The notes: generated by a model not told the origin, from the letters alone. A stretch of DNA of 64,000 bases from Ignavibacteria bacterium (GCA_020852705.1 JADZAP010000004.1:81486-145485); one strand, 5' to 3'; counted from the stretch's first letter, positions 5,561 through 30,600 are shown. Numbers and translations: made by a program.

Positions 5561-5566
5561 TACTTA

Positions 5567-5597: not shown

Positions 5598-5679
5598 TTC
5601 CTTTACCTGTTAATTTAATTATCCGGAAATATTTTATAGATTGTTACATATTTAATTTTGATATAATTTTGCTGTTAAT

Positions 5680-7749: not shown

Positions 7750-7777
7750 AAAATATAAAGTTTAATTTGTAAATTAA

Positions 7778-8662: not shown

Positions 8663-8964
8663 ATAATTAAAATAGAATTAATATATACAAATTTAATTTT
8701 AATTTAGTACTTAAACAATTTATAAAGAAATATTCACAGATTTTAATTAAATGGCAGAATTATAATTTTAAAATTCAGCCATTTTATAAAAATATTTATT
8801 TTGCAAAAATATTATTAGTGATTAAACCATATATCTAAATTTATCAATTTTAAATCAATTAATTGCAAATAGGAAAGCAGATTTGAGAAAGAATTAATCA
8901 TATTTAAAATACTTAATTTTAAGTATTTTTGCTGATATTCATAAATTCCATATACAAAAAATAC

Positions 8965-10476: not shown

Positions 10477-10617
10477 ATTTCAATAACAATTTTTTTTAAT
10501 TACAGCAAAGAAACAAATTGCAGGCAAAGTATGTATAATTTATTAAATTATATCCAATATTTAATTAATTTATCTTTAATAAATTTTAACTTATCATTGT
10601 AAACTATTTAAAATTCT

Positions 10618-12486: not shown

Positions 12487-12504
12487 TGAAGGAGCCCTTA
12501 ACTG

Positions 12505-13539: not shown

Positions 13540-13570
13540 TTTGATAACTTTACACAAATAAGATATATTA

Positions 13571-14371
13571 ATGATAAAACATAATATACGCGGATTAAAT
13601 GTAATAGAATTTGGTGATGAAAATAAACAGGCAATAATATTTGTTCATGCATTTCCGTTATGCAGCAGGATGTGGGATAAACAGGCAGAAGAGCTGCAGA
13701 AAGAATACAGAGTAATTGTTTATGACCTGCGGAGTTTTGGATACAGTGAAGCGGGAGACGGACTATTTACAATAGATTCACATGTAAGTGATTTGATTTC
13801 AATTATAGACAGTCTTAAACTTGAAAAACCTGTTGTATGCGGACTTTCGATGGGAGGATATATAACATTAAGGGCTCTTGAACTTTATCAGAGCAAGTTC
13901 AAAGGTGCAGTTCTGGCTGATACAAAAGCTGAACCGGATAATAATCCGACAAAACTTGCCAGAGCGGAGCAAATGAAATTAATTAAGAACGAGCAAAGAG
14001 AGCAATTCACAGTAAACTTTATAAAAGCAGTTTTATATGATGTTAATTATAACGAAAAACCGGAGCTAGTTGAGTTTTTAAAGAAAATGATAGGATGGCA
14101 GAAAAATGAAGCAATAAACGGTGCATTGTTAACTCTTGCAGCAAGAACAGATACAACGGAAGCATTAGAAAAATTTGATATTAAACTTCTTTTTATGGCA
14201 GGCAAAGAAGATAAGTTAACACCCCCGGAATTTTCAAAGATAATGTACAGCAAGACAAAGAACTCTGAGATTAAAATCATTCCAAATGCAGGTCATTTGC
14301 CAAACATGGAAAACCCGGACGATTTTAACAAAGCAATAATGGATTTTATGAAGAGTATTGAGAAGAAATAA
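13571..14371 (+). CDS. Alpha/beta hydrolase
   Basis: 266 aa. HAFP oxyanion region, GLSMGG nucleophile elbow, C-terminal GH motif (NAGHLPN). Confidence 0.8.
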   Translation: MIKHNIRGLNVIEFGDENKQAIIFVHAFPLCSRMWDKQAEELQKEYRVIVYDLRSFGYSEAGDGLFTIDSHVSDLISIIDSLKLEKPVVCGLSMGGYITLRALELYQSKFKGAVLADTKAEPDNNPTKLARAEQMKLIKNEQREQFTVNFIKAVLYDVNYNEKPELVEFLKKMIGWQKNEAINGALLTLAARTDTTEALEKFDIKLLFMAGKEDKLTPPEFSKIMYSKTKNSEIKIIPNAGHLPNMENPDDFNKAIMDFMKSIEKK

Positions 14372-14427
14372 TTTAAACGGATAAATTAAATGGTCAATTT
14401 AATTTAATGTTTAGATTAAATTCAAAA

Positions 14428-15375
14428 TTAAGAAAGTTTTTTCCCTATTTCCCTTAACATTATTTCAATCATTTTAGGCAAGTCATAAGTATATTTCCAT
14501 CCCCAATCTTTTTGAGCACACTCATCATTAATGCTTTCGGGCCAAGTTTCAGCAATTTGCTGACGGAAATCAGGTTTATAAGATATGTTGAAATTTGGAA
14601 TATGTTTTGTAATTCCTATAGCAAGCTGTTTTGGAGAAAAGCTGATAGCGCTTAGATTGTAACTTGAGCGAATTTTGATATTTTTGGGATCTGCCTCAAC
14701 AAGATCAATAGTTGCCTTAATTGCATCGGGCATAAACATCATTGGCAAAGCAGTATTTTCAGTAAGAAAGCATTCATATTTTTTATGTTTAATTGCTTCA
14801 TAAAATATTTCCACTGCGTAATCGGTTGTACCCCCGCCTGCTTCAGTTTTGTAGCTGATAAGTCCCGGGTAGCGAATACTTCTAACATCAGCATTATACT
14901 TTTTGAAATAATATTCACACCATCTTTCTCCGGCAAGTTTACTTATTCCGTAAACTGTTGAGGGTTCCATTATGGTAAGCTGAGGTGTATTAATCTTTGG
15001 AGTAGTAGGTCCAAATACAGCAATAGAGCTAGGCCAAAATAATTTTTTAACCAAAGAATCCTTAACCAAATCAAGCATTAAAATAAGACTTTTCATGTTA
15101 AGCTCCCATGCTTTTTTAGGGTTTTTTTCAGCACTTCCGGAAAGCATAGCGGCAAGAAGGTAAACAGTATCAACATTATTTTTTTTTATTGTATCAAAAA
15201 CTTTCTTTTCATCCAAAACATCTAGGACTTCAAATTGTCCGCTAGACATAACTTCATCGGAAGCATTTTTAATATCACTTGCAATCACGTTTTCATTTCC
15301 ATATCTGTTTCTGAGCTCAAGGGTTAAGTCAGATCCAATTTGTCCGGATGCACCAATAACAATAATTTTATTCAT
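14428..15375 (-). CDS. NAD-dependent epimerase/dehydratase family protein, L-threonine 3-dehydrogenase-like
   Basis: 315 aa. N-terminal GASGQIGS Rossmann motif and YxxxK (YGISK). The overall pattern resembles short UDP-glucose-epimerase-like TDH enzymes. Confidence 0.7.
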   Translation of the reverse strand: MNKIIVIGASGQIGSDLTLELRNRYGNENVIASDIKNASDEVMSSGQFEVLDVLDEKKVFDTIKKNNVDTVYLLAAMLSGSAEKNPKKAWELNMKSLILMLDLVKDSLVKKLFWPSSIAVFGPTTPKINTPQLTIMEPSTVYGISKLAGERWCEYYFKKYNADVRSIRYPGLISYKTEAGGGTTDYAVEIFYEAIKHKKYECFLTENTALPMMFMPDAIKATIDLVEADPKNIKIRSSYNLSAISFSPKQLAIGITKHIPNFNISYKPDFRQQIAETWPESINDECAQKDWGWKYTYDLPKMIEIMLREIGKKLS

Positions 15376-15551
15376 TTTGATTTGCTTAATTTTTAATCGA
15401 AAAAAATTTGCAGGTTTCTGATTAGGTTACTAAATTCCTTCTTCAGAATAGATATTCTAATATTTTATAAAGGTATTACATAAAACTTTTGTTGTTTATC
15501 AATAAAATTAAGGATCAATTATTTTATTAAACTTTTTTTAACCAAATTATA

Positions 15552-16913
15552 TTAAATCCCTTCAACAGTAACTTGTGGGGTAACTTTATTCTTTGGAATT
15601 AAAGCGGGCCAATAAGCTACAACATCGCTGGGTTTGGGTCTGCCACCGGCAAAACCGGTAACACTTGGGGGACCTGTTAAAATAAGCGGAGCAATTTCTT
15701 TGCTGAACCTTTCAATTGTGGCTTTATCTTTTGCCCTTACCCCTATTCTTAATACAACCTCGCTAATATCTTCATGTCTTTTTACAAGGGGTCCGTGGCA
15801 GCTGTTGTATCCCAGGAATTCAGTTCTAATTTCCTCAAACTTCAAACCAAGGTCATCAAGCCGAGTTCGCAAAATTTTATCGGCAGCTTCCGCTTTTTTA
15901 AGTGCATCAGGTGCAGAATAAGTTAAAGTGGAAAATGCACTAAAGCCATCATCGTAAGACATTGATACCTTGTAGAATTCAGTTGCAGGTTTGCCTGTAA
16001 TGCTATATGCTTTAACGCGGTTAGAGCCATTTTGCTCAAGTTGAATGGAGGTGAAGTCAGCAATACAATCAGGTGTAATATATTCTTTTGGATCACCAAT
16101 TTCATATAACAGCTGTTCGCTTACGGTTTCAACAGAAACAAGCCCTCCTGTATTTTCATGTTTTGTAATAAAGAAAGTACCATCTTTATGTGCTTCAACA
16201 ATTGGAAAGCCAATTTTTGCGAGGTCAGGAACTGATTCCCAGTTGCCAAGGAAATTTCCTCCGGAAGCTTGCCCACCGCACTCTATAATATGCCCTGCAA
16301 TTGTACCGGCAGACATTTTATTAAAATCGTTCATATCCCACCCAAACTCGTAAATCATTGGTGCAAGAGTAAGACCTGTATCAGTAACTCTGCCGGTTAT
16401 AACAATATCAGCACCTTGTTTTAATGCTTCAACAACAGGAGCGGCACCAAAATAAACATTTGCGCTTAAAATTTTATCTTTTACTTTTTGGGCACTTTCA
16501 CCTGTCTCCATATTTTTTAATAACACACCTTCTTTAAGGAGACTTTCAATGTTTTCCAGAATATTATCGCCATCAACCACACCTATTTTAATTCCGCTAA
16601 TACCAAGTTTTTTTGCTACATCAAAAACAGCATCACGGCATGCAAACGGATTAACTCCTCCCCCATTTGTAATAACTTTAAATCCTTTTTCCTTCATCAA
16701 GGGAAGTAATCTCTCCATTAAAGGGGGAATATCACGGGCGTAGCCAAATGCGGGATTTTTAAGTTTTTGTTTCATTAGGATTGACATAGTAACCTCTGCA
16801 AGATAATCCATCATAAGATAATCAATTGGACCATTAGAAGCTTGACTAACAGGGGCATCAATTAAGTCGCCCCAAAATCCCTGCCCTGAAGCGATTCTGA
16901 TTGTTTCTTTCAT
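15552..16913 (-). CDS. DUF1446 / AtuA-like acyclic terpene utilisation family protein
   Basis: 453 aa. The N-terminal IRIASGQGFWGD motif and length are typical of AtuA/DUF1446. Confidence 0.7.
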   Translation of the reverse strand: MKETIRIASGQGFWGDLIDAPVSQASNGPIDYLMMDYLAEVTMSILMKQKLKNPAFGYARDIPPLMERLLPLMKEKGFKVITNGGGVNPFACRDAVFDVAKKLGISGIKIGVVDGDNILENIESLLKEGVLLKNMETGESAQKVKDKILSANVYFGAAPVVEALKQGADIVITGRVTDTGLTLAPMIYEFGWDMNDFNKMSAGTIAGHIIECGGQASGGNFLGNWESVPDLAKIGFPIVEAHKDGTFFITKHENTGGLVSVETVSEQLLYEIGDPKEYITPDCIADFTSIQLEQNGSNRVKAYSITGKPATEFYKVSMSYDDGFSAFSTLTYSAPDALKKAEAADKILRTRLDDLGLKFEEIRTEFLGYNSCHGPLVKRHEDISEVVLRIGVRAKDKATIERFSKEIAPLILTGPPSVTGFAGGRPKPSDVVAYWPALIPKNKVTPQVTVEGI

Positions 16914-16988
16914 TAAATTTTATTTCGGTTAATGCTAATTTTTGATAAATTTATACAAATTTACCAAAAAAAGATGATATTAAAAATT

Positions 16989-17016
16989 AAAAACCCCGCA
17001 CAAAATTGTATGGGGG
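16989..17016 (-). terminator. Probable Rho-independent terminator downstream of the FabK/NMO-like gene
   Basis: On the minus strand, cccccatacaattttgtgcgggg forms a hairpin with one mismatch, followed by TTTTT. Confidence 0.4.
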
Positions 17017-17101
17017 TAAATGAGGTATTCAAGATAATTTGAAAATTTTCTATTAAAATTTAAATTTAATTAGTCATTTATTAAATAATAAGCTGATTGC
17101 T

Positions 17102-18052
17102 TTATATATTTGATACAGCAATGGAATATTCATTTAAAAGTCTATTAACCAAATCCTTAACAGAAATAATATCATTAACCAAACCGCTTGATTGCCCCAT
17201 TTCCAATTCACCTTCATCAAGGTCGCCTTCAAATATACCCTTCATTTCCCTTTTTTTACCAAGAATTTCTTTAAGTTCATCAGCAGAAGCACCCTTCCTT
17301 TCAGCTTCAATAACATTTAAAGCAAATTTATTTTTTAAAAGTCTAACCGGATTAAGTTTTTTCATTGTTAAATAAGTATCGGAATCTTTAGCATCAACAA
17401 TTTTTTGTTTGAAGGAACTGCTGCTGGAAGATTCTATGGTAGCGGCAAACCGTGTACCAATTTGCACGCCTTCGGCACCAAGTGCCATGCAGGCAGCAAT
17501 CTGCGCCCCAGATGCAATTCCCCCTGCTGCAATAACAGGAATATCTACAGCATTTACAACCTGCGGAACGAGGCATAAGGTAGTTATTTCATCAACACCG
17601 TTATGACCGCCTGCTTCAAATCCTTCTGCAACAACGGCATCGCATCCGGAATCCTGTGCTTTGAGTGCATGCTTAACGGAAGCAACAACATGCACAAGAA
17701 TTATTCCATTATATTTAAAAATATCTGAATATTGTTTTGGATTTCCGGCAGAGGTGAATACAATTTTTATTTCTTCTTTAAGGATAGTATTTATAAGGTC
17801 TTTAACATCACCGCGAATAAGGGGAAGATTTACACCGAATGGTTTATTAATATTATTTTCTTTATAATAATTTTTCAGCTTTTGGATATGTTCGCTCAGC
17901 AGGTCAGGTTTCATTGAGCCGGCACCAATTAATCCAAGGCAGCCGTTTTCACTTGCTGCTGAGGCAAGTTTCCACCCCGAGGTCCACACCATACCTGCCT
18001 GAATAATAGCATGTTCAATTCCGAATAATTTATTTATACGGGTTTGTTTCAT
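17102..18052 (-). CDS. Nitronate monooxygenase family / FabK-like enoyl-ACP reductase (FMN TIM barrel)
   Basis: 316 aa. IIQAGMVW N-terminus, GFEAGGH and AAGGIA motifs of the NPD/NMO/FabK family. Confidence 0.8.
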   Translation of the reverse strand: MKQTRINKLFGIEHAIIQAGMVWTSGWKLASAASENGCLGLIGAGSMKPDLLSEHIQKLKNYYKENNINKPFGVNLPLIRGDVKDLINTILKEEIKIVFTSAGNPKQYSDIFKYNGIILVHVVASVKHALKAQDSGCDAVVAEGFEAGGHNGVDEITTLCLVPQVVNAVDIPVIAAGGIASGAQIAACMALGAEGVQIGTRFAATIESSSSSSFKQKIVDAKDSDTYLTMKKLNPVRLLKNKFALNVIEAERKGASADELKEILGKKREMKGIFEGDLDEGELEMGQSSGLVNDIISVKDLVNRLLNEYSIAVSNI

Positions 18053-18056
18053 CAGC

Positions 18057-18563
18057 TTATATTTCTTTAAGCAATTTAATCATATCCAGCACAGCTTTGG
18101 CAGCTTCTTTTCCTTTATTGTTTTCATCTGCATTTGAGCGATTTAATGCCTGTTCATCTGTATAACAGGTTAAAATACCAAAAGAAACGGGTGTGCTGTA
18201 GGTCATATTCAATGTCATTATAGCGTTAGAAACGGTTTCAGAGATATATTCAAAATGGGCTGTTTCACCTTTTATTACTGCACCAAGGCATATAATACCG
18301 CAATACCTGCCGTTTATACATAACTGCTTTGCAGTTAATGGAATTTCAAAAGCGCCTGGCACATAATAAATATCAAATCCGTTTTCATGGTAATTATTTT
18401 CTTTAAGAACATCTACAGCGCCTTTAAGCAAACCGCTTGTTACCTCATCATTAAACTTGCTTACAATAATTGCTATTCGTGCAGAACGCTTTTTGCTATC
18501 TTTGATATTTTTACTATCCTTTAATTTTTTGTTTTCTTTATTTTTTTTATTTGATTTTGACAT
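18057..18563 (-). CDS. ribH: 6,7-dimethyl-8-ribityllumazine synthase with lysine-rich N-terminal extension
   Basis: 168 aa. The core RIAIIVSKFN...VPGAFEIP...GAVIKGETAHFEYI is canonical RibH. It is preceded by ~27 K/N/S-rich residues. The start lies 4 nt after the upstream gene stop. Confidence 0.85.
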   Translation of the reverse strand: MSKSNKKNKENKKLKDSKNIKDSKKRSARIAIIVSKFNDEVTSGLLKGAVDVLKENNYHENGFDIYYVPGAFEIPLTAKQLCINGRYCGIICLGAVIKGETAHFEYISETVSNAIMTLNMTYSTPVSFGILTCYTDEQALNRSNADENNKGKEAAKAVLDMIKLLKEI

Positions 18564-18567
18564 ATAT

Positions 18568-19416
18568 TTATGATTTAAACAATCTGTTTTTCATTGCAGT
18601 AATTTGCGATATGGTGATAAAATACTTTCCCAGAATTGATACATCATTTATTCTGCCTCCATGGAAATCGCTGCCGCCGCTTTCCAGAAGAAAATATTGA
18701 TTTGCAATATTACGAAAGTATTCTGAGTCTTTTTCAGTATGCGAAGGGTGAATTACTTCAATGCCATCAACACCAAACTCAATCATTTCAAACAGGGCAT
18801 TATTGTTGCGCATACTTTTGCCCGGGTGGGCAATAAATGAAAGTCCACCGCACCTGTTTATAAGAGAGATTGCATCTTTAGCAGATATGTTTGGTTTTTT
18901 AACATACGCAGGTTTATCATCACCAATATATTTATTGAAAGCGTCAAAATAATTATTAACAAATTTATTTTCAACCATTGCAATAGCAATATGCGGTCTG
19001 CCAATAGAGCCGTTGCCTTTTACCTGTTTTATTACATCACCAAAAGTGATAGCCAAGCCAAGCTCATTAAGCTTATTTACAATTTTTTCGGCTCGTTTCA
19101 CTCTTTCTCTGCGGAAGTTTTTAAGGTATTGAAGCAGTTCTTCATTTTTGTGGTCAATAAAATAGGCAAGGATATGAGTTTCTTTTCCGTTATGCTCAGC
19201 ACTTATTTCAGTACCTGAAATAAGTTCAATGCCAAATTTATCGGCGTACTCAGATGCTTCAAAGTAAGAATCAACGTTATCATGATCGGTAATAGCTATG
19301 TGAGTTAACCCGGAGTTTTTGGCATGTTTAATTAGTTCTTCCGGCGAATGATAGCCATCGGAATAATGAGTGTGAGTATGAAGATCGGCTTTGAAATTGG
19401 AGTCAATGCTTCCCAT
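18568..19416 (-). CDS. PHP-domain phosphoesterase (TrpH/YciV-like)
   Basis: 282 aa. [12 protein letters not shown]-terminal metal-binding motif, IAITDHD, later HP and DFHG motifs. Confidence 0.8.
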
Positions 19417-19550
19417 AGGCGGATTGACTTATGCAGAAAAACGGCTAAAAGATAAAGAAATAGCAGCCGTAAACAGAGCCCTGAATGTATAAAATGGACT
19501 AAATCCTGCGGTTTTTCTCCTGAAAGCGAAGAATTTAAAATGGTTAATTG

Positions 19551-19624
19551 TACCGGAGGAGGGACTTGAACCCCCGACCTGCGGATTATGATTCCGACGC
19601 TCTAACCACCTGAGCTACTCCGGC
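19551..19624 (-). tRNA. tRNA with CAU anticodon (elongator Met, or Ile2 if lysidine-modified)
   Basis: The reverse complement GCCGGAGTAGCTCAGGTGGTTAGAGCGTCGGAATCATAATCCGCAGGTCGGGGGTTCAAGTCCCTCCTCCGGTA folds as a cloverleaf. It has a 7-bp acceptor stem (G1-U72 wobble), GCTC/GAGC D stem, anticodon loop AUCAUAA, GGGGG/CCCTC T stem and TTCAAGT T loop. No CCA is encoded. It lacks initiator features. Confidence 0.85.
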
Positions 19625-19689
19625 AATAATAAAACATTAAATAAGCACAAAAATAGCAATTTAGTAATTGGGTTTCAAGGGAAAATTCA
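19580..19689. repeat. Left copy of a 110-bp perfect direct repeat (tRNA nt 1-45 plus 65 bp of 5' flank)
   Basis: Identical base for base to 23083-23192 by my reading. Flanking bases differ (c/t on the left side, c/t on the right side). Confidence 0.9.
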
Positions 19690-19769
19690 CTTCAAAATTC
19701 CCATTTGTAAATAAACTGTAATTAATTTTCATTATATTTGTAGAATTAAAATAAAAATTATTTATTGTT

Positions 19770-19982
19770 ATGACAATGAAGTTTGAAGTAATAATCTATC
19801 AAGACGAAGATGGTGTTTTTATTGCAGAATGTCCTTCAATACCGGGCTGCGTAAGCCAGGGGGAAACACATGCTGAAGCCGAAAAGAATATAAAGGATGC
19901 AATAAAGGAATGCTTAATTGTAAGAAAAGAAAACGGGCTTCCTTTAACCGTAGAAACAAACAAGGTTGAAGTAACAATTTAA
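19770..19982 (+). CDS. hicB: HicB-family antitoxin (UPF0150, short form without DNA-binding domain)
   Basis: 70 aa. YQDEDGVFIAECPSIPGCVSQGETHAEAEKNIKDAIKECL is the classic HicB/UPF0150 pattern. Its stop abuts the hicA ATG. Confidence 0.8.
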   Translation: MTMKFEVIIYQDEDGVFIAECPSIPGCVSQGETHAEAEKNIKDAIKECLIVRKENGLPLTVETNKVEVTI

Positions 19983-20204
19983 ATGCCCAAAATTCCTTTA
20001 TTACCCCCAGCAAAAGTCATTAAAATTTTCGAAAAATTTGGATGGTCAACTGCCCGTCAAAAAGGCAGTCATATTATTATGACAAAACCCGGCAGTATTT
20101 CAACGCTATCTATCCCCAATCATAAAGAAGTTGCCAGAGGAACTTTAAAGAGTTTAATTATAAAGGCTGGTATTAACATTGATGAATTCTTAAACATTTC
20201 ATAA
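19983..20204 (+). CDS. hicA: HicA-family mRNA interferase toxin
   Basis: 73 aa. KVIKIFEKFGW...QKGSHIIMTKPG...IPNHKEVARGTLKSLIIKAGI matches the YcfA/HicA pattern, including the catalytic GSH. Confidence 0.85.
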   Translation: MPKIPLLPPAKVIKIFEKFGWSTARQKGSHIIMTKPGSISTLSIPNHKEVARGTLKSLIIKAGINIDEFLNIS

Positions 20205-20428
20205 AATCCGATTAAAATAAAATTTCGGAAATCAAAATAATCTTATTTAAACCGTAATTTTATTATATATGAAAGCTCTCTGAATAATTTTTTTTAAGCG
20301 GACTAAATAGTCTACTTTTCTCGACTATTCTTGCCAGCAACATTGCAGCGGGTTCTCGCGCTCTGGGTGCATTTTAAATTGTAAAATTACAGCAGAGGGG
20401 AAAGAATAAAATAATGGTTTTTTCACCT

Positions 20429-21187
20429 CTAGTTAGCTCTATCTAATCTATTTAATGATTCGAAGTAATTTACTGAACCACTATATTCACTTATTTCATA
20501 ATTAAGTTTTGATGAACCGTATTTTATGCTCTTTAAATGACAATCAATGTATAAATAATTAGGATTGTAATTTATTTCAGTAATTGTAATTTCAATCTTT
20601 TTATCTTTTATAAGTTCAAAATCTTTAAAATTAAACTCTTCTTCTAACCTCAAAATATATCCAAATCTATACGCGTGCATTGAACGAATTCCAATGTCAA
20701 GTTTAAATTGGAGCCAATTTAAATCTATATCCCTTTCATTTGCAATGTCCAGTTGCAAGTAAAGACTATACTTTAATCTATCAAAATGTTTGGCATCATA
20801 ACCCATTGGAACTTCTGTTTTTTTTGATTTTAGTTCTGATACTATTGTATTTTGGACATTAACATAATCCATTATCTTTTTTTTAAGCTCATCCATTTTG
20901 CTAAACCTAAAATTTTTAGCTTCAGTATTAAACCTCCACCTAAAACTAATTAGTGGTTCATGTAAAATAGAATGGGACTTAACAGTAGAAAACATCAAAT
21001 AATATGTAAATACTACATAAATTGTTGTAGCCAGAGTAATGAAATAAGTAGGGATTATTTCTAACAAATGTTTTAATATTTCCTCTGATGGTTTAGTATA
21101 ATATAATAAATAAAAAATTGTTGCTATAATCAAAGTTTCAATTACTATGAAAAAAATAGATATCATTAAAGCTCTTTTATTCATCAT
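20429..21187 (-). CDS. Hypothetical membrane protein (two N-terminal TM helices plus ~180-aa soluble domain)
   Basis: 252-aa ORF with hydrophobic stretches at about residues 7-29 and 45-66. I recognise no motif in the remainder. It has its own upstream region after a terminator. Confidence 0.55.
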   Translation of the reverse strand: MMNKRALMISIFFIVIETLIIATIFYLLYYTKPSEEILKHLLEIIPTYFITLATTIYVVFTYYLMFSTVKSHSILHEPLISFRWRFNTEAKNFRFSKMDELKKKIMDYVNVQNTIVSELKSKKTEVPMGYDAKHFDRLKYSLYLQLDIANERDIDLNWLQFKLDIGIRSMHAYRFGYILRLEEEFNFKDFELIKDKKIEITITEINYNPNYLYIDCHLKSIKYGSSKLNYEISEYSGSVNYFESLNRLDRAN

Positions 21188-21249
21188 AATTGCAGCTCCT
21201 ATAAATTTTAATTTAATCTAATATAATTTTTTATGTTTAACTTAATAAT

Positions 21250-21277
21250 GAAAAAAGATAGGCTTAACCTATCTTTT
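21250..21277 (-). terminator. Rho-independent terminator after the 140-aa islet gene
   Basis: Hairpin aagatagg-cttaa-cctatctt, flanked by an A-run on the plus strand (a T-run on the minus strand), immediately downstream of the stop at 21291. Confidence 0.55.
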
Positions 21278-21290
21278 CCAATTATAGCAG

Positions 21291-21713
21291 TTATGCAACC
21301 TGCATCTGCTGAAACAATTCATTAACCGCTCCGATGATAGCTTCTCTTAACTGCACAAATTCCGGCTTTATTTTTATGCCGGTTTTCCTTTTGTCCGGCT
21401 TATTTGAACCGTTCTTAGCTATTGCAGCAGCAGAATTTTTTGAAATGATCTCGATGTCATACACGGTAGCAAGTTTCTTGCCTTTCTTTCTCATATCCTT
21501 TGTAACCGCTATTACTGAATTTTTACCTAATCGTTTCTTCTGAATGAAATCAACTACATCCTGCGGCGCAAAGAAGCTCTGTATTTCATATTCATTTAAT
21601 AAAGGAAACATATTCCATTTCCCGTATTGGCTTATGCCTGTTATAACGTTGTCGGTTAAGAGTTTCAATTCAACAGGTTCGCCGATATTAAATTCAAGTT
21701 TTGGATTATTCAT
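21291..21713 (-). CDS. Hypothetical small basic protein
   Basis: 140-aa ORF. The N-terminal ~95 aa look like a compact beta-rich domain, followed by a K-rich/Ala-rich linker and a terminal helix. No recognisable family. Confidence 0.5.
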   Translation of the reverse strand: MNNPKLEFNIGEPVELKLLTDNVITGISQYGKWNMFPLLNEYEIQSFFAPQDVVDFIQKKRLGKNSVIAVTKDMRKKGKKLATVYDIEIISKNSAAAIAKNGSNKPDKRKTGIKIKPEFVQLREAIIGAVNELFQQMQVA

Positions 21714-21808
21714 TTTGTGTTTTACTCCTTCCCGATTAGATTATATATATTATACCAGTTTTTCAATTTATCAAATTAAAATTTTTGAATATATTTGAAG
21801 CAAGATAA

Positions 21809-22252
21809 ATGATGGAAAATCAAGACAGGATATTGGAGTATTGCCCCATTTGCAAACATTATGGTAGTAATGGTGCTTGCGGAAAACTGGAAATTAACAT
21901 TAACTCTTATCCGGAAAAGTTCTATGCAAAATGTGATGGGAAATTGTTTGAAAAAATAGATAATATTCCTGATGAAAATTATTTAGTTGAAAAGTTTTAT
22001 GAAGAAGTATTGAATAAGCCGGATTTTGAGGAGGAATTGAATGATTTTATTTATCCGCATTTACACGAGGATAATTTGAAAGGTAAAGCTCAAAGAAAAA
22101 TAAAAAAATTTATTAAAATATCTGAAGATTACAGAAATAATATGTGGGATTTTAGTGGCACCCCGAAACAAAAAATTTTGAAAATACTGGCAGCAATTTT
22201 AGGATTAGTAGGTGCTTTTGTAATTGGTGGTTTTTTAAAAGGTTATTGGTAA
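21809..22252 (+). CDS. Hypothetical protein with N-terminal 4-Cys zinc-ribbon-like motif and C-terminal TM tail anchor
   Basis: 147 aa. CPICKHYGSNGAC...C at the N-terminus, an acidic middle, and a C-terminal ILKILAAILGLVGAFVIGGFL hydrophobic helix. Confidence 0.5.
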   Translation: MMENQDRILEYCPICKHYGSNGACGKLEININSYPEKFYAKCDGKLFEKIDNIPDENYLVEKFYEEVLNKPDFEEELNDFIYPHLHEDNLKGKAQRKIKKFIKISEDYRNNMWDFSGTPKQKILKILAAILGLVGAFVIGGFLKGYW

Positions 22253-22255
22253 TGT

Positions 22256-22888
22256 TCAATCAAATATTTTTAAGTAAGTTTTTGTAGGCATAACAATAAT
22301 AGAAACAAAATTATTAAATTTTACACATAATTCAAGTTCCGTTAGATCGATTGGCTTGAAATCACTATTAATATCGTTTTCGATATGACAGAATGATAAC
22401 GAAATACCTTTAAATCTGTTATTGGGTGAAAATGAATAATAATATCCTTTTAATTTTTCTATTTCGGAACTTATGACATTAAGAAATGGAAAGTCATAAA
22501 ATAATTTTATTTCAATTCCATATTTTACTGGTTGTATCCACAAAGCTTCACTATTGAACCAATCTCCGCATTGTTCATTAATTTCCTTTAAAGCTTTTTT
22601 TTCATGTTTATTCAAAATAGCAATATCAAACCTGTTTTTTGAATATTCACTCCTGTCGTTTTCACCTTTATAAAAGTAATGATATTCGGTAGTTAAAACA
22701 GGAATATTTACCTGATCTTTTTCTTTTTTTAGATATTTCTCTGTGTTTATTTCGAATGTGTCCTTATAACTTTTTATTAGATAGCTATATAAGCAACATT
22801 TAATATCACTCTCAGTCAAAAATTGAAAGGGATTTTGTTTATAATTATTTATAAATTCATTAATTGCATCAATTAATTTTTTATCCAT
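22256..22888 (-). CDS. Hypothetical protein with PD-(D/E)xK nuclease-like motif
   Basis: 210 aa. E68 (TTEYHY), D88 (RFDIAIL) and E126-I-K128 (YGIEIKL) sit in hydrophobic beta-strand contexts, as in restriction-endonuclease-fold proteins. This is motif-level evidence only. Confidence 0.45.
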   Translation of the reverse strand: MDKKLIDAINEFINNYKQNPFQFLTESDIKCCLYSYLIKSYKDTFEINTEKYLKKEKDQVNIPVLTTEYHYFYKGENDRSEYSKNRFDIAILNKHEKKALKEINEQCGDWFNSEALWIQPVKYGIEIKLFYDFPFLNVISSEIEKLKGYYYSFSPNNRFKGISLSFCHIENDINSDFKPIDLTELELCVKFNNFVSIIVMPTKTYLKIFD

Positions 22889-23082
22889 TTTTTTAAACCG
22901 GTTTAAATTATCTTAAACAATACTCAAAAATAATAAATTAATCAATTTACTTCTGAATGCTATTATTATTGAAACGACCTATTTATCTAATTATAGTTTT
23001 AAGAGAAAAAAATTGAAGTGAAATTAAACTGTAATTATTGAAGCTGAATTTTACCGAAAAGGAACAATTACTAAAACAAAAT

Positions 23083-23127
23083 TGCGGATTATGATTCCGA
23101 CGCTCTAACCACCTGAGCTACTCCGGC
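23083..23127 (-). pseudogene. Orphan 5' fragment (nt 1-45) of the tRNA(CAU) gene
   Basis: Contains the acceptor 5' strand, D arm and complete anticodon arm. No T arm or 3' acceptor strand follows. Confidence 0.85.
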
Positions 23128-23192
23128 AATAATAAAACATTAAATAAGCACAAAAATAGCAATTTAGTAATTGGGTTTCAAGGGAAAATTCA
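23083..23192. repeat. Right copy of the 110-bp perfect direct repeat
   Basis: Identical to 19580-19689. Confidence 0.9.
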
Positions 23193-23236
23193 TGTGAAAA
23201 ACTATAAGTTTTGAACAACTGAGCAAAAAATAATTT

Positions 23237-23545
23237 AAAAGCAATGGACACTAATTACGCGAGTTTTACGAATTAACACAAATTCAAACTGGAATAATTA
23301 TTATATATTGAAAATATTCAGGGGAATAAGTTTGATTAATTGAAAGTTGAAAATTAACACAGTTAATTACACTCATCTATTTAAAAAAACAAAAAAAAGC
23401 ATTGGACACGAATTATACGAATTATACGATTTAACACAAATTCAAACAGATATAATTAATATATATTGAAAATTATTCAAGGATAATGATTTGATTAATT
23501 AATGAAAAAAATTAACTACATTATACACATTAAATAGATATTAAA
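23237..23545. repeat. Two imperfect tandem copies of a ~158-bp AT-rich unit
   Basis: Unit A (23237-23394) and unit B (23395-~23545) share long blocks (aaaagcaWtggacacNaatta...ttaacacaaattcaaac...atatattgaaaat...tttgattaatt...aaaattaac). Unit B contains acgaattat x2 plus acgattt (23408-23432). Confidence 0.6.
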
Positions 23546-23797
23546 CAATTTTAATTCCGGTTGCATTAATTTCTTTTACAAATAAATCATAATTTTCATT
23601 AAATTTTTAAGGGCGGTATGTTAAGAAATCAATCTTGTTATCAATCTGCAAAGTTATTTCAGCAATTTTTTTCTGTTATTAAATTTATTCCCTTCAAAAT
23701 TATCTGAAACAAGAACAATATCAATATCGCTCCATTCTGAAAATTTGCCATGAAGTACTGGGGCTTGTTGAAGGCGAAGGCAATTTAGCACAAAAGT
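23541..23797 (-). pseudogene. Degraded small nucleotidyltransferase (MNT/Pol-beta-like) gene remnant
   Basis: One minus-strand frame reads ...APVLHGKFSEWSDIDIVLVSDNFEGNKFNNRKK (23797-~23666). After the A7 run (23666-23672) the sense continues in another frame: KKIAEITLQIDNKIDFLTYRP*KFNENYDLFVKEINATGIKIV*. That frame has an in-frame TAA at 23607-23609. The SDIDI motif in a hydrophobic context is NTase-like. Confidence 0.4.
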
Positions 23798-23909
23798 TCA
23801 ATCGAAGAACTAATGTTGAACCTGCACAGACGTTTTTTCGATGCATTTCAGATCCCATTACGCAAAGCCACTGTTAGCGGATCGAGCTTTATTTTGCCAG
23901 TTATAATTA

Positions 23910-25925
23910 TCATGTCAGTCGTCTTTTTAATAGTTGTGCATTTATTGCAACCACAATGGTGCTTAAGCTCATTAATACTGCGCCAACAGCAGGACTAAGC
24001 ATAATATTCCACTTATACAATACGCCTGCTGCCAATGGAATTGCAAGGATATTGTAGCCAGCAGCCCACCAAATATTTTGTATCATTTTGTTGTAAGTGG
24101 CTTTACCGAATAAAATCAGATTAGCAATGTCTTTCGGGTCAGAGTTGACTAAAATAATATCTGCTGTTTCTGCTGCCACATCAGTTCCTGAACCAACGGC
24201 AATTCCAACATCTGCTTGTGCCAAAGCAGGAGCATCATTCACTCCGTCACCTGTCATAGCAACATTTTCACCTTTTTCTTGTAGCTCTTTTACCTTTTCT
24301 AATTTGTCGTGCGGTAATACATTGGCTATAAAGCCGTCCATTTTCAATTCATCACTAACGTTTTTGGCTACTTTTTCATTGTCGCCTGTGAGTAATAAAT
24401 TCTTTATTCCTGCTTCTCTCAGTATTGTAATTGCCTCAAAAGAACTTTTTCTTATCTGGTCAGAGAACGTAAAATATCCTATCACTGAGTTATCTATCAA
24501 GGCATAAACAACCGTTCCTGTAAATTCATCCTTTGTTTCAGTAATGCTGATGTTTTGTTCTTTCAAATAATTTGGACCAACCACTTTTAGTTTAATCCCT
24601 TCAACTATTCCTTCCAAGCCTATGCCTGGCAGGTAATTGAAGTTTTCTGATTTTGGAATTTCAATCCCTAATTCTTTGACTTTTCTGAGTAGCCCTGAAG
24701 CGATATAATGTTCCGAATGTTGTTCAATACCTGATGCTAAGCGGAGTAATTCCCTTTCATTAAATTGTTTGTTCAATATTTTTACTTCCTGTAATTCATG
24801 CGAACCTTTTGTAAGTGTTCCTGTTTTATCAAAAATGATTGTAGTAATCAATCGGGCATTTTCAAAAGCCGTTCTGTTGCGAATGAGTAAACCTTTTTGA
24901 GCAGAAATGGAAGTAGAAATTGCTACCACTAATGGAACAGCTAAACCCAAAGCATGAGGACAGGAAATTACCATAACAGTTACCATTCTCTCCAATGCAA
25001 ATACAAAAGGAAATCCTAACATCAACCAAGTGACAAGTGTAATAACGCCTCCACCAAGAGCAACAAATGTTAGGACTTTTGCAGCTCGGTCGGCAAAGTT
25101 TTGTGTTTTCGATTTTACCTTTTGTGCATCTTCAACCAATTTCACCACCTTATTAAGGTAGCTGTCTTTTCCTGTGCTCAACACTTTAATTGTTAGTGAA
25201 CCATTACTATTTACAGCACCACCTATTACTTTATCGTCAATTGCTTTTTTTACAGGTTTACTTTCGCCTGTAAGCATACTCTCATCAACATAGCTTTCGC
25301 CTTCCGTTACAATTCCATCAACAGGTATTTTTTCACCCGGTTTTATTAAAACAAAATCTCCGATTTTTAAATGGCTGACAGGCATATCGTGAACATGACC
25401 GTTTACAAGATGATGTGCAGTAGAGGGCATCATCTTAACCAACAACTCTAAAGAACGAGACGCACCCATTACCGATTTCATTTCAAAGTAATGTCCGATG
25501 AGCATAATGTCTATAAGGGTTGCCATTTCCCAATAAAAGTCCATTCCCTGTAAACCGAAAGTAATAGCAACGCTGTATGCCCAAGCAACGGAAATAGCCA
25601 CGCCAATTAGTGTCATCATACCAATGGCGTTGTCTTTCACTTCGTCATAAAGACCTTTTAAAAACGGATGTCCTCCATAAATGAAAATGAAGGCAGAAAG
25701 CATTGCCAATACATACTTATCGCCTTTAAACATTAATTCAAAGCCGAGCCAATGCTGTATCATGAGCGATAAGGCAAGTACAGGAATAGAAACTATGGTA
25801 CAAACAATAAATCGTGTCCAGAAGTCGGATACGTTGTGTCCAGCGTGTTTATCATGACCACTATGCTCCGAATGTTCGTTCGCATTATGATTTGAATGGT
25901 CGTGAGTTGTGTGATGATGTTTCAT
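23910..25925 (-). CDS. copB: Heavy-metal (copper) translocating P1B-type ATPase, CopB-like (P1B-3)
   Basis: 671 aa. His-rich N-terminus ([30 protein letters not shown]), TM CPH motif ([10 protein letters not shown]), DKTGTLT phosphorylation site, TGES, and GDGVNDAP hinge. Confidence 0.85.
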
Positions 25926-26088
25926 TATTTATTGTGACTATTCAATTTCTTAACCAATTTTGTTGATGCTGTATTGCATAAATGCTATAAGCGTTTACCA
26001 AAATAATCACAATATATATCTTCCCGGTTAATCAGACGTAAACATGTTTCCAAAATTACAAAATTATATACGAAATAAAAATATCTAT

Positions 26089-27549
26089 CTATATCATCCG
26101 GTTAAAAATGCTTTTTACATTTTCAAGGTTATCTTTGTTAACAAGTACAAGAATTGTATCCCCTGCTTCTAGCTGAGTGCTGCCACTTGGTACAACATAA
26201 TCATCATCCCTGTAAATTACAGTTATAAGACTTTCAGCCGGTAAGTGCAGTTCTGCCAGTGTTTTTCCTGCAGCCCATGACCTTTCAGAAATTATTAAAT
26301 CAAGCAGGTCATTTTTAGTATTAACATTTTCATTTATTTCAATAGGGATGCCTGCAATTTCCTTTTTATCACTTTTTACACCTAGCAGCTTTGCTGCAAG
26401 CGGAATTGACCATCCCTGCACAAGTGCAGAAGTTATAGTAATGAAAAAAACAAGGGTAAATATGTATGGACCTATTGATAAACCTGCTGTCAATGGAAAT
26501 GTTGCTAAAATTATAGGGACTGCTCCTTTTAATCCGACCCATGAAATAAATAGCTTATCGTTAAATTTAAACTTTGAACCTATCATAGAAATAAATACAC
26601 TAATTGGTCTTGCAAGCAATATTAATGCTGCTGAAAGTATTAAACCAACTCCAATAACATTATAAAGCTGTGCAGGATATACGAGCAGCCCAAGTGTTAA
26701 AAACATAATAATTTGACCAAACAAAGCAAGACTATCAAAAAATCTGATAGTTGATTTTTTTTGAACAAAATCTGAATTACCCAGTATAACCGAAGCAATA
26801 TAAACTGCCAAAATTCCGCTGGACTCAACTGACGCAGCTGCTGCATATATTAATACAGCAGATGCAATAGCAAAAACAGGATATAAGCTTGGAAACGGAA
26901 AGCGAAACTTATTAAATGAATAGGCAAGCAATTTTCCCGAAGCTAACCCAATAATTGAGCCAAGCCCAATTTGGAGGAACAAAAATAATACTACTCTTAA
27001 TGCAGTTACTTCATCACCCTGAAGAAATTGAATAAACAAAACCGTTAGAATTATAGCCGCGGGATCATTGCTTCCGGACTCAAACACAAGCAGCGGTTTT
27101 ATGTTGTTTTTTAAATTGATACTTTTACCGCTGAGCACAGAAAATACAGCAGCTGCATCGGTAGATGAAATAATAGCACCAATAAGTAAACCTTCGGTTA
27201 TACTTAATCCGGTAAGGAAGTGAATAACATATCCCATAACAACTGCAGCAATAAAAACACCAATTGTTGAAAGAAAAAAAGCCGGTTTTAAAACAGGTTT
27301 AACCTCATACCATTTAGTATCTAAACCGCCTGAGAATAAAATGAAAATTAAAGCAACAATACCTACATATTGAGCAATATATACATTATCAAAATATATT
27401 TTACCAAAACCATCAGAGCCGGCAAGCATACCAACTATAAGAAATAAAATCAGTGACGGTACTCCAAGGTTTTCTGAAACCTTAGTAAGAGAAATACTGA
27501 TAAGTACAAGTACTGAAATTACTAATAGTATATATTCAAATGGCACCAT
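26089..27549 (-). CDS. K+/H+ (cation:proton) antiporter, NhaP2/CvrA-like, with C-terminal TrkA-C domain
   Basis: 486 aa with ~12 TM segments of the CPA1 type. The C-terminal soluble ~90 aa (LAELHLPAESLITVIYRDDDYVVPSGSTQLEAGDTILVLV) are typical of TrkA-C. Confidence 0.8.
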   Translation of the reverse strand: MVPFEYILLVISVLVLISISLTKVSENLGVPSLILFLIVGMLAGSDGFGKIYFDNVYIAQYVGIVALIFILFSGGLDTKWYEVKPVLKPAFFLSTIGVFIAAVVMGYVIHFLTGLSITEGLLIGAIISSTDAAAVFSVLSGKSINLKNNIKPLLVFESGSNDPAAIILTVLFIQFLQGDEVTALRVVLFLFLQIGLGSIIGLASGKLLAYSFNKFRFPFPSLYPVFAIASAVLIYAAAASVESSGILAVYIASVILGNSDFVQKKSTIRFFDSLALFGQIIMFLTLGLLVYPAQLYNVIGVGLILSAALILLARPISVFISMIGSKFKFNDKLFISWVGLKGAVPIILATFPLTAGLSIGPYIFTLVFFITITSALVQGWSIPLAAKLLGVKSDKKEIAGIPIEINENVNTKNDLLDLIISERSWAAGKTLAELHLPAESLITVIYRDDDYVVPSGSTQLEAGDTILVLVNKDNLENVKSIFNRMI

Positions 27550-27551
27550 AT

Positions 27552-27581
27552 TATAAAAAAGGCATTCACAAAGAATGCCTT
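27552..27581 (-). terminator. Rho-independent terminator downstream of secA
   Basis: On the minus strand, aaggcattc-tttgt-gaatgcctt is followed by TTTTTTAT. Confidence 0.6.
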
Positions 27582-27615
27582 AAATTAAAAATCTAATTTT
27601 TTAATTTAACAAATT

Positions 27616-30600
27616 CTATGCTGTTTTTCCGTGACAATTTTTATATTTTTTTCCGCTGCCGCAGGGGCAGGGGTCATTTCTGCCAATTTTAGGACCGACT
27701 TTAACAGGCATCTTTTTTACTTCACCCGGCTGATTTTGCAGGTCATCTGACTGTTCGGGTGTCATTTTTAAGCCTACGCCATCAGCATTTGCTTTAATAG
27801 TTGTCATACGCTGAGGCATTTTTTGACGCTGCTGAGGTACTTCAACTTTTTGCTCCTGAGTGGTAAATTTGAATACAAAATTAATAACATCTTTGCTAAT
27901 ATCTTCAAGCATCTGCACAAAGAGTTCAAAACCATCTTTTTTGTATTCAATTAACGGATCTTTTTGACCGTAAGCACGGAAGTTAATACCTTCTTTCAGG
28001 TCATCCATTTCACGCAGATGTTCTTTCCATTTATCATCTATTACAGTCAAAACAGCAAAGCGTTCAATTTGAGCAATAAGCTCGGTTCCGTATTTTTCTT
28101 CTTTGCGTGAATAGTTTTCTTTAACAAGATTAATGATGTATTCTTCTAAACCTTTTTCGCCCTGTTTTTGGAATTCTTCAGGGGTTAAATCCATCAGAAC
28201 TGTAAATGTTCTTTGAATTTCATCTCTTAAACCATCATAGTCGCCATCGGGGTAATATTTTTTAACGGTATTTTCAATATAAGAGGCAGCCATATCAAAA
28301 ATTTCATCTTTAACACGCTCACCCATTAATGCCTGTCTTCTTCTATCGTAAATAACTTCGCGCTGCTGATTCATAACGTTATCATACTCAAGCAATCTTT
28401 TACGGATACCAAAGTTATTTTCTTCAACTTTTTTCTGAGCACGTTCAACTGAATTGGTAATCATAGAGTGCTCAATAGCTTCACCTTCTTCAATGCCTAT
28501 TTTTTCCATTATGCGTGAAATTCTTTCACTGCCAAATAATCTCATCAGGTCATCTTCGAGAGAGAGGAAAAATCTGGAAGAGCCGGGATCACCCTGTCTG
28601 CCTGCACGACCGCGAAGCTGTCTATCAATACGTCTTGCTTCGTGGCGTTCGGTTCCAATTATATGCAAACCGCCAAGCTCAGAAACACCGGGACCGAGTT
28701 TAATATCGGTACCTCTTCCTGCCATATTTGTAGCTATGGTTACTGATGATTTTAAACCTGCATTCTGCACAATTTGCGCTTCGCGCTGATGCTGTTTAGC
28801 ATTAAGAACTTCATGGGCTATCTGTTTACGTTTAAGCATTCTGGAAATTGTTTCAGATACTTCAACAGAAGTTGTACCAACAAGTACAGGTCTGCCAATA
28901 GTTTTCATTTTTTCAATTTCAGCAATAACGGCATTATACTTTTCACGTTTGGTTTTATACACAACATCGTTCATATCATCACGAATGCACTCAACATTTG
29001 TAGGGATAACCACTACATCAAGTTTGTAAATATCAAGAAACTCCCCTGCTTCGGTTTCAGCGGTACCTGTCATACCGGCAAGTTTTTTGTAAAGTCTAAA
29101 ATAATTCTGCAGAGTAACTGTTGCGAGTGTTTGCGTATCTTTTTCAACATGAACACCTTCTTTAGCTTCAATTGCCTGATGAAGACCTTCGGAATATCTT
29201 CTGCCGGGCAGAACGCGTCCGGTGAATTCATCAACAATCATAACTTTGTTATCCTGTACTACATACTCAACATCATTTTCATAAAGTGAATATGCCCTTA
29301 ATAGCTGCTGAACGGTATGGATTCTATCGCTTCTTAAGGAATAAAGCTCACCAAGTTCATCTTTCTTTTTTAATTTATCCTGCTCACTAATACTTGAGTC
29401 ATCTTCAATATGTGCAATTTCAGTACCCATATCAGGAAGGATAAAGAAATCTTTATCTTCGTTTGCAGTTGTTAAAAAGTCACGTCCTTTTTCGGTCAAA
29501 TCAATTGAATGAGCTTTTTCATCAATTGCAAAATACATAACGTCATCAATTTCGGGCATTCTTTTAGCATTATCCCTCAGGAATTCCATTTCAGTTGACT
29601 GCATAAGAGTTTTGTTTGAAGGTTCTGCAAACAGCTTAAGCAGTTTTTTATTTTTGGGGAAGCCGCGATGTGCTCTAAGCAAAGCAACACCTGCCTGGTG
29701 AATTTCATCTTTTGAAGCATCATCACCTTTATTAAGGATTGTTTCGGCTTCACCGGTTATTTTGGCAATCAGTGCTTTTTGAGCATCAACAAGGCGTTTA
29801 ACACGGGGATTCATTTCATTGAATTTATGTTCGCTCAATTCAACGGCACCTGAAATAATAAGCGGCGTTCTTGCTTCATCAATAAGAACTGAGTCAACTT
29901 CATCCACTATAGCATAATTATGCCCGCGCTGCACCATGAACTTTTTATCAACAACCATATTATCGCGGAGGTAATCAAAACCGAACTCATTATTAGTACC
30001 ATAAACAATATCACAAGCATAGGCATCACGGCGTTTATCATTATCCATATCGTTAAGAATAACACCAACGCTTAATGAGTGGAATTTAAAAATTTCACCC
30101 ATCCATTCGCTATCGCGTTTAGCAAGGTAGTCATTAACAGTAATAATATGAACACCTTTGCCTGGTAAAGCATTAAGATAAATGGGCAGAGTGCCAACAA
30201 GAGTTTTACCTTCACCTGTAGCCATTTCAGCAATTTTACCCTGATGCAGTACCATACCGCCAATAAGCTGAACATCAAAAGGTATCATATTCCACTGAAT
30301 TCGCTGACCTGCTGCAAGCCACTCCTTACCGCATAATCTTCTGCATGTTTCTTTAACAACAGCAAATGCCTGCGACAATAACTCGTTTAATGTATCTTCA
30401 ATTATTTCATCAATCTCATTTTCAGTTTTTTCAAGTTCATCATAAATATCTTTTCTTTCTGCTTGTGTGATATCACTTGTAAGTTTTGTACGAAGTTCAA
30501 TAATTTTATCTTCGTGTTCCTGTGTGTTGCTTTTTATAATTTCACGGAATTCAGTAGTTTTAGCTTTTAGTTCGTCATCGCTTAAACTTTGATATTGGCT

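Follow-up and report, generated by a model that had tools for sequence, protein, structure and literature searches.

An integrase-less islet at a tRNA(CAU) gene of an Ignavibacteria bacterium, probably derived from a family of small islands that enter tRNA genes from the 5' side

How does an islet without an integrase come to lie at a tRNA gene between perfect direct repeats, and is it still able to move? The question is raised by a locus within a 64,000-nucleotide stretch of DNA (hereafter the window) from an Ignavibacteria bacterium (GCA_020852705.1 JADZAP010000004.1:81486-145485), in which a preliminary description, made from the sequence itself, had noticed a tRNA(CAU) gene and two identical 110-bp direct repeats enclosing a hicB-hicA toxin-antitoxin pair and four open reading frames (ORFs). 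The computational analysis reported here indicates with good confidence that the islet belongs, as a reduced form without an integrase, to a family of small integrative islands in Ignavibacteria. The locus provides a clean natural case of the rare reversed polarity of tRNA integration, with a filled site, an exact empty site and integrase-bearing siblings.

Direct repeats, target gene and empty site

The stretches 19580-19689 and 23083-23192 are identical at 110 of 110 positions by computed alignment, as claimed earlier, with a spacing of 3393 bp between them; when the comparison is widened to 118 nt the identity is 97%. The left copy (minus strand) comprises nt 1-45 of an intact tRNA(CAU) gene and 65 bp upstream of it. 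ARAGORN and Rfam (RF00005, 63.8 bits) agree on this gene (19550..19624, minus strand), which is the sole tRNA gene of the window and is read here as the reconstituted target; it lacks initiator-like character and would be a Met-elongator or Ile2 tRNA, and an identical tRNA lies upstream of the PHP gene in the relatives L014 and L026. The repeated tRNA part consists of the acceptor 5' strand, the D arm and the complete anticodon arm plus one nucleotide. In the right copy (minus strand), formed by the native promoter side and a truncated tRNA (nt 1-45, 23127-23083), the T arm and the 3' acceptor strand are missing, as had been stated, and the Rfam score of 27.7 bits is below the gathering score of 29. 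The Rfam alignment hinted at a residual 3' acceptor strand, and hence at a decayed full tRNA, a possibility that was rejected since the similarity is at chance level: 839 of 5000 shuffles reached the observed score in local alignments of the sequence beyond the right tRNA copy, which was also compared with 60-mers of the islet.

The duplication of a tRNA part had been recognised correctly in the preliminary description, which overlooked that it is the 5' half, together with the promoter side, that is duplicated instead of the usual 3' end. A promoter-like site (TTGAAA-17-TATTTT with TG upstream) is present at 19678-19650 in the left repeat and both repeat copies carry it; the same hexamers and spacing are read by eye in the relatives L026 and L041. 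In the overall scan with the promoter consensus 28 sites were obtained against 26.8 expected, i.e. not above chance, and the promoter function is putative.

The empty site was found in a conspecific strain (WBZR01002523.1; L012), located by an exact look-up of the ATPase encoded in the right flank. Its flanks are 99-99.7% identical to those of the window, and it carries one intact tRNA gene and one repeat copy, with the islet missing; the ATPase-PHP distance is 990 bp in L012 against 4493 bp in the window. By blastn, L012 matches window positions 15379-19689 at 98.98% and 23083-30067 at 99.74%, the overlap of the two matches being exactly one 110-bp copy, and in a multiple alignment the outer flank of the right copy continues into the tRNA 3' part that belongs to the left copy. 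The right repeat adjoins chromosomal spacer that is unchanged in L012. The comparison with related genomes for a single tRNA without the islet, proposed earlier, has therefore given the expected arrangement. In more distant relatives the tRNA-Met gene upstream of PHP is kept and the tRNA is identical, with unrelated sequence upstream. In the proposed search for the islet in other genomes, the islet with hicBA was seen in one strain only (in identical Logan contigs), and a related island was recovered at the same tRNA-Met/PHP locus in L026.

The divergence from L012 is asymmetric about the islet. The left flank shows 44 mismatches in 4.3 kb (15379-19689), from position 19446, 104 bp beyond the tRNA gene; the right flank shows zero mismatches over 3.7 kb (23083-26805). 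A recombination breakpoint thus coincides with the tRNA/islet, and homologous recombination in the flanks may have carried the islet, or the empty state, from one strain to another.

A family of related islands

The island at the tRNA-Met/PHP locus of L026, which belongs to another species, was compared with the window by blastn, and three collinear homologous blocks were found to bracket two swapped segments. The homologous blocks are ORF140 with its upstream region (window 21798-21251, L026 130-864, 89%), a non-coding element (window 20392-20247, L026 2914-3060, 87%), and the stretch of arm, repeat, tRNA and 50 bp beyond (window 19725-19499, L026 5786-6013, 92%). The first swapped segment is a cargo slot, holding ORF252 in the window (21250-20393) and a methyltransferase and an HNH gene in L026. 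The second is an end module, in which the hicA-hicB pair (20246-19726, 521 bp) stands in place of the 2.7 kb that encode a 443-aa protein and the integrase in L026. The presence of hicBA within the 3393-bp interval, confirmed by Pfam matches for HicB and HicA, had been reported before; that the pair lies exactly in the position of the integrase module of the relatives had escaped notice.

In L026 the ORF140 homologue (93% amino acid identity) is followed by an N6/N4 methyltransferase, an MTaX1/HNH endonuclease, the 443-aa protein and a 353-aa tyrosine integrase (4697-5758; PF00589, Phage_integrase, E 5e-34), which lies 130 bp upstream of tRNA-Met; PHP-ribH-NMO-AtuA come next after the tRNA. 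L041 is a second island of this tRNA-Met type. Relative to the window, L026 and L041 show 84-93% amino acid identity in ORF140, 80-87% identity in the non-coding element and 89-92% in the arm and attachment (att) region, the tRNA-proximal arm region matching L041 5642-5773 at 89% by blastn. The general order of the family is ORF140, variable cargo, the non-coding element, the 443-aa protein, the tyrosine integrase and the att site, and homologues of ORF140 lie beside a tyrosine integrase in L026, L030, L033, L037 and L041.

In L030, L033 and L037, ORF140 and cargo are accompanied by a 349-aa integrase about 35% identical to that of the tRNA-Met type, and L030 also encodes the 443-aa protein. 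These siblings lie at tRNA-Glu(CTC), between direct repeats made up of tRNA nt 1-40/42. The repeats are found at 7280-7321 and 14671-14712 in L030 (island region 7245-14724, on a 320-kb contig) and at 8889-8931 and 15762-15804 in L033 (island region 8856-15815, on a 50-kb contig). The L037 contig begins and finishes inside the tRNA-Glu repeat; L042 begins in the same repeat and stops before reaching an integrase. The 5'-half repeats of the tRNA-Glu siblings indicate that the family as a whole shares the 5' polarity and a boundary at the anticodon arm. The integrase of the tRNA-Glu type adjoins the truncated tRNA copy and is co-directional with the tRNA (L030, L033, L037), and that of the tRNA-Met type adjoins the intact tRNA and is divergent from it; the orientation of the island relative to its target is flipped between the two integrase types, with the 5' polarity kept.

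Where both ends are seen, the family islands measure about 3.5-7.4 kb. Their cargo includes restriction-modification genes, SIR2, a SLATT, SMODS and HNH combination, Mrr and HTH/TPR proteins. ORF140 is 93% identical between hosts with 74% identity in PHP and 74-76% DNA identity in the flanking genes, which argues for a horizontal spread of the backbone. The family appears to be an undescribed group of small integrative islands of Ignavibacteria, and its definition adds to an under-studied phylum a small modular type of island in which restriction-modification, SIR2 and cargo resembling the cyclic oligonucleotide-based antiphage signalling system (CBASS), i.e. SMODS/SLATT, are placed between conserved junctions.

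The islet retains ORF140, the non-coding element and both att arms. The tRNA-proximal arm (19690..19725) is homologous to the integrase-proximal arm of the full-length islands, and its absence from the empty site of L012 marks it as island DNA. The distal arm extends over 22902..23082, of which 22902-23013 matches the end of L044 (positions 2-114; blastn, 76.5%). A 19-nt motif, TGWAATTAAACTGTAATTA, occurs at 19706-19724 and 23019-23037, exactly twice in 64 kb against 0.02 expected, and is also present in the integrase-proximal arm of L026 and L041; the motifs may be arm-type protein-binding sites. The non-coding element (20247..20392, about 146 bp) is 74% identical to L030 11762-11908, is partial in L033 and recurs at L041 2066-2168, L043 1356-1439, L044 4309-4384 and L036 7056-7190, with 74-89% conservation in most of the family islands examined. 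As a rule the cargo and the 443-aa/integrase module (in the window, hicBA) converge on it with their 3' ends. As a structured RNA it was rejected, since Rfam gave no match and neither strand a consensus fold; it might serve as a module-exchange junction, an origin or a regulatory site.

The 443-aa protein is encoded at L026 3298-4629, L030 12152-13483, L041 2436-3767 and L043 2452-3510. It matches phrog_4756 (E 6.5e-53), has no Pfam or PDB sequence match, and is 80% identical across tRNA-Met and tRNA-Glu islands, the integrases of which are only 35% identical. The sequences DYSGLHLR and VIHDS, picked out by eye, recall motifs A and C of family-A polymerases, which is offered as a hunch. ORF140 and the 443-aa protein could constitute a replication module.

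A second integrase-less island at tRNA-Met is L044 (Logan SRR32799351, 5167 bp), in which the slot of the integrase of its relatives (4417-5006) is occupied by a pair encoding a DUF5678 protein (56 aa) and a retropepsin-like aspartyl protease (138 aa). Its tRNA-proximal arm is unlike that of the window. The two cases suggest more than one loss or replacement of the integrase module. The contig L036 (JGI 3300039222, 11.5 kb) holds an ORF140 homologue and the non-coding element, but all other ORFs called on it are very short; as its assembly may be of low quality or frameshifted, the contig was set aside.

The islet itself lacks an integrase of its own, in which it differs from an autonomous tRNA island; the repeats, the empty site and the integrase-bearing homologues are those of such an island. 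The family integrases of both types and the 443-aa protein were not found in the 64-kb window by tblastn (E>1), and a profile search of all six-frame ORFs of the window with hmmsearch gave no tyrosine recombinase (best E 0.24). Precomputed Pfam matches on identical or near-identical contigs show no integrase gene from about 7.8 to 36.3 kb, the outer parts of the window not having been screened for serine recombinases or transposases; the earlier statement that the window holds no integrase or recombinase is upheld for tyrosine recombinases, and for all genes within about 7.8-36.3 kb. A hidden recombinase among the four unnamed ORFs was considered and rejected on Pfam, PHROGs, PADLOC and NCBIfam searches, and a match of ORF252 to rve_2 is below threshold (E 0.0094, 16.5 bits, cut-off 22). 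A cognate integrase elsewhere in the same metagenome-assembled genome (locus tags IT280_) was looked for in the 90% clusters of the L026 and L041 integrases, which contain no member from it.

Mode of entry and present status

Integrases that use the anticodon stem-loop as the core site are well known. Williams 2002 reportedly distinguished sublocation classes among tRNA-targeting islands and prophages, including crossover in the anticodon loop, and Zhao & Williams 2002 are said to have described a reversed target-gene orientation in which recombination occurs with the 5'-distal part of a tRNA or tmRNA gene, with archaeal cases also cited. The islet family shares with classical tRNA islands and prophages the repeat boundary at the anticodon stem-loop, a tyrosine recombinase with a SAM-like N-domain, an att site beside int and repeated arm motifs; classical elements, in contrast, carry the part from the anticodon loop to the 3' end, and the islet family that from the promoter to the anticodon arm. 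Integration into the 5'-distal tRNA part, with mirrored polarity, is documented as considerably less frequent (PMC6563490). The islet resembles such reversed-orientation elements in that the element carries the tRNA 5' part, the 3' part is missing from the truncated copy, the promoter would have to come from the element side and the full-length relatives encode a tyrosine integrase. It differs from them in belonging to a bacterial family (Ignavibacteria) of very small size, about 3.5-7.4 kb, in the 110-bp identity block with a recognisable promoter-like site, and in the lack of an integrase in the window copy.

In the favoured explanation, the family tyrosine recombinase of about 350 aa would recombine the element-borne tRNA 5' half with the chromosomal tRNA gene, the exchange taking place in or beside the anticodon stem-loop. 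Entry from the 5' side would displace the tRNA's own 5' half and promoter, and the element would bring replacements for both; integration would leave one end with an intact tRNA and the opposite end with a 3'-truncated copy. Such entry would explain the length of the repeat, which takes in tRNA nt 1-45 and 65 bp with the TTGAAA-17-TATTTT site, and replacement from the 5' side would also explain why the repeat ends 1 nt past the anticodon stem. The long identity blocks would then have their reason in the need to replace the promoter as well as the tRNA 5' half. In the islet of the window, the att-adjacent module of the 443-aa phrog_4756 protein and the integrase would have been replaced by the hicB-hicA pair, with ORF140, the non-coding element and the arms kept, which would make the islet a non-autonomous derivative resembling a cis-mobilisable element (CIME) and a candidate example of an addiction module taking the place of an integrase.

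Reversed-orientation tRNA integration and CIME-type non-autonomous elements (PMC5704250) are the closest known concepts. As in CIMEs derived from streptococcal ICEs (integrative and conjugative elements) and IMEs (integrative and mobilisable elements) (PMC5704250), the integration genes have been lost and, judged by sequence, both attL and attR are retained, the arms matching L026/L041 and L044 and the motif being present in both; trans-mobilisation would be possible in principle. Unlike in CIMEs (PMC5704250), the parent islands carry no recognisable conjugation or mobilisation genes, and a toxin-antitoxin pair has taken the place of the integrase module, which was not simply deleted.

That the islet is a small mobile or formerly mobile unit, as proposed earlier, agrees with the exact empty site, the AT-richer composition and the three backbone segments shared with integrase-bearing islands. 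As no integrase is present in the islet or, within the scope given above, in the window, the earlier alternatives of decay or mobilisation in trans are therefore the right pair of options: the islet would not be self-mobile, and would be a remnant that HicAB keeps fixed in place, or else a CIME-like passenger for the integrase of a sibling to excise and integrate. The hicBA form may have entered as such by means of a sibling's integrase, or may have lost its integrase once integrated. Recent activity is favoured by the intact arms and the perfect repeats, and decay by the single-strain distribution and by the decayed relative L044. A dead remnant, in which a full-length island integrated, later recombination swapped the 443-aa/integrase module for hicBA and the islet can now be lost only by recombination between the repeats, is a serious candidate to which slightly less than an even share of belief is given. 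The absence of an integrase speaks for it, as does L044, which has independently lost its integrase and has the DUF5678 and aspartyl-protease pair in the same slot, and decay to integrase-less elements is described as common (PMC5704250). Perfect repeats and intact arms require, however, that such decay be recent or the arms be under constraint, and as this account has its origin in common with the favoured explanation it differs from it only in the present status of the islet. Rather doubtful is a live non-autonomous element of CIME or satellite-like kind, under selection, with functional attL and attR, moved in trans by the integrase of a visiting sibling and stabilised by HicAB. It would account for the retention of both att arms, each with its copy of the 19-nt motif, the 110/110 identity of the repeats, presence and absence within one species and the clean module swap between conserved junctions, and it follows an established concept (PMC5704250). 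It has to contend with the lack of the cognate integrase from the window and of an IT280_ member from the 90% clusters of the L026 and L041 integrases, with the occurrence of the hicBA form in one strain only, and with L044, the other integrase-less relative, which has also lost the tRNA-proximal arm in a manner resembling decay. The fullest version of this idea, put forward tentatively, is of undescribed Ignavibacteria mini-islands that enter backwards into the tRNA 5' half with a promoter of their own, the hicBA islet being a toxin-antitoxin-stabilised hitchhiker mobilised in trans by its siblings; it is an equally tentative part of the same picture that defence cargo and end modules are swapped at the non-coding element and the att arms.

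Two further accounts deny site-specific integration at this locus. An assembly artefact, in which an empty site and a free 3503-bp circle (the islet with one repeat) were threaded together through the shared 110 bp, is very improbable. An empty-site contig does exist, and the k=31 Logan contig of the islet is separate, 3453 bp long, and ends exactly 30 nt inside each repeat, which fits both topologies; as a k=31 graph suits an integrated islet and a circle plus empty site alike, the contig ends were set aside as evidence on integration. At 19608, 19660 and 23112 the Logan contigs break as expected from overlaps of k-1 into the repeat, and the breaks at 19578-19580, where the 31-mers become pure tRNA, are likely due to a tRNA shared with other species of those samples. 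The empty-site contig, however, comes from a different strain with 44 left-flank mismatches, reads of 150 nt can span 110 bp, so that reads probably resolved the published 172-kb contig, relatives are integrated with repeats in long contigs (320 kb in L030, 50 kb in L033), and a replication gene is not recognisable in the islet. Still harder to credit is an origin of the repeat without site-specific recombination, through an insertion mechanism with a very long target-site duplication or through duplication in situ. The identity of the 65-bp non-tRNA part to host sequence in the empty-site strain would suit it; the integrase-bearing siblings, however, have the same kind of tRNA 5'-half repeats, the arm and the 65-bp segment are homologous to integrase-adjacent island sequence in L026 and L041, and duplications of 110 bp are not known to us from any prokaryotic mechanism of transposition.

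Several observations weigh against the favoured explanation of a reduced family island. For full-length islands of the tRNA-Met type no distal end was recovered, and the 110-bp block in an autonomous sibling is to that extent presumed. In its 65-bp non-tRNA part the repeat is 100% identical to L012 and about 85-92% identical to the island copies of L026 and L041, a pattern that needs a long residence in the species, gene conversion or an origin of the segment in the lineage. The hicBA form occurs in one strain, with no direct sign of host-to-host movement; the flipped orientation of the tRNA-Met and tRNA-Glu types and the low identity of their integrases (35%) limit extrapolation from one type to the other; and RecA-mediated deletion between the repeats could likewise give rise to the empty site. 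Should the favoured explanation hold, the reconstructed attP and the attB (L012 12700-12885) and the two integrase types (tRNA-Met and tRNA-Glu) would be candidate tools for site-specific recombination.

Genes of the islet and neighbouring sequence

The islet has a GC content of 25-30% against 35-40% in the flanks. Nearest the tRNA lie the genes for a HicB-like antitoxin of 70 aa (19770..19982, plus strand; PF21748 E 7.7e-07, 29.4 bits, cut-off 27.3; PF15919 E 2.2e-06, 28.3 bits, cut-off 27; phrog_497) and a HicA toxin of 73 aa (19983..20204, plus strand; PF07927 E 5.1e-19). The two genes abut at 19982/19983, the adjacency typical of a HicAB type II toxin-antitoxin system. The HicB protein is confined to the N-terminal HicB/UPF0150 fold (profile positions 2-52 of 123), and a DNA-binding domain for autoregulation, another mark of HicAB, was not recognisable by Pfam.

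The four remaining ORFs had been described as having no nameable family, and indeed none matches a Pfam, NCBIfam, PHROGs or PADLOC family; ORF140 and ORF147, however, proved to be conserved island genes and not orphans. ORF252 (20429..21187, minus strand), with a hydrophobic N-terminal part seen by eye, is an orphan that gave self-hits only among 5.8 billion clusters; its position in the variable cargo slot matches that of the methyltransferase and HNH, SIR2 or SMODS/SLATT cargo of relatives. ORF140 (21291..21713, minus strand) is the conserved backbone gene of the family, with homologues at 60-93% identity. Its AF2 model has a mean pLDDT of 58.9 and allows no fold assignment, the best Foldseek PDB match having E 0.84 and SSB/OB-fold proteins turning up at noise level only, and a profile search of the PDB returned sortase B only (E about 0.08). 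ORF147 (21809..22252, plus strand), in which an N-terminal Cys cluster and a hydrophobic C-terminal segment were noted by eye, shares 80% amino acid identity with positions 1105-1548 of L044, which is without integrase, and has a DNA match in L045 as well.

ORF210 (22256..22888, minus strand), a cargo gene, is predicted from its alignment to encode a PD-(D/E)xK-type nuclease. Homologues of ORF210, as of ORF252, were not found at word-index sensitivity; 34 distant homologues of ORF210 were obtained, and E26, D88, E126 and K128 are invariant in a 27-sequence alignment (an E...D...ExK signature). A weak profile match (E 0.035) is to chain residues 234-313 of the 'CRISPR-associated (Cas) DxTHG family' protein 6qzq. 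No member of the ORF210 family has a Pfam match, and the single-sequence AF2 model of ORF210 is unusable (pLDDT 31).

Judged by the cargo of their relatives, ORF252, ORF210 and ORF147 are probably defence or accessory genes. With defence islands, and with HicAB modules on mobile elements, the family shares a cargo slot holding restriction-modification, SIR2, SMODS/SLATT and Mrr genes, and HicA and HicB recognisable by Pfam. It is unlike them in the window, where ORF252, ORF147 and ORF210 give only noise-level matches to PADLOC defence models and the HicB of 70 aa has no recognisable DNA-binding domain. A phage or plasmid origin of the islet was rejected: blastn against phage and plasmid collections gave no match to the islet, and four protein scans of viral contigs gave no relative. 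The ORFs had further been credited with their own terminators, a claim that finds no support, as 2 terminator-like sites were found against 1.4 expected.

The left flank is housekeeping in character, as described before, with Pfam matches to PHP, DMRL synthase and NMO. In the AT-rich spacer on the other side, between the right repeat and the P-type ATPase gene, two direct repeats of 134 nt (23225-23358 and 23383-23516) show 73% identity at a spacing of 158 nt. The same spacer, upstream of the tRNA, contains at 23560-23800 on the minus strand a decayed MNT-type nucleotidyltransferase-like pseudogene with in-frame stops and the motif SDIDIVLVSDNFEG (NTP_transf_2, E 0.0058, below threshold). The empty-site strain presumably has it too, because the stretch is without mismatch, and it may be a relic of older mobile DNA at the site. 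Further to the right, a short indel or gap separates two alignment blocks with L012 inside secA (30067-30097); in the L012 assembly secA is called as two genes of 195 and 823 aa, the split being probably an assembly or frameshift issue there.

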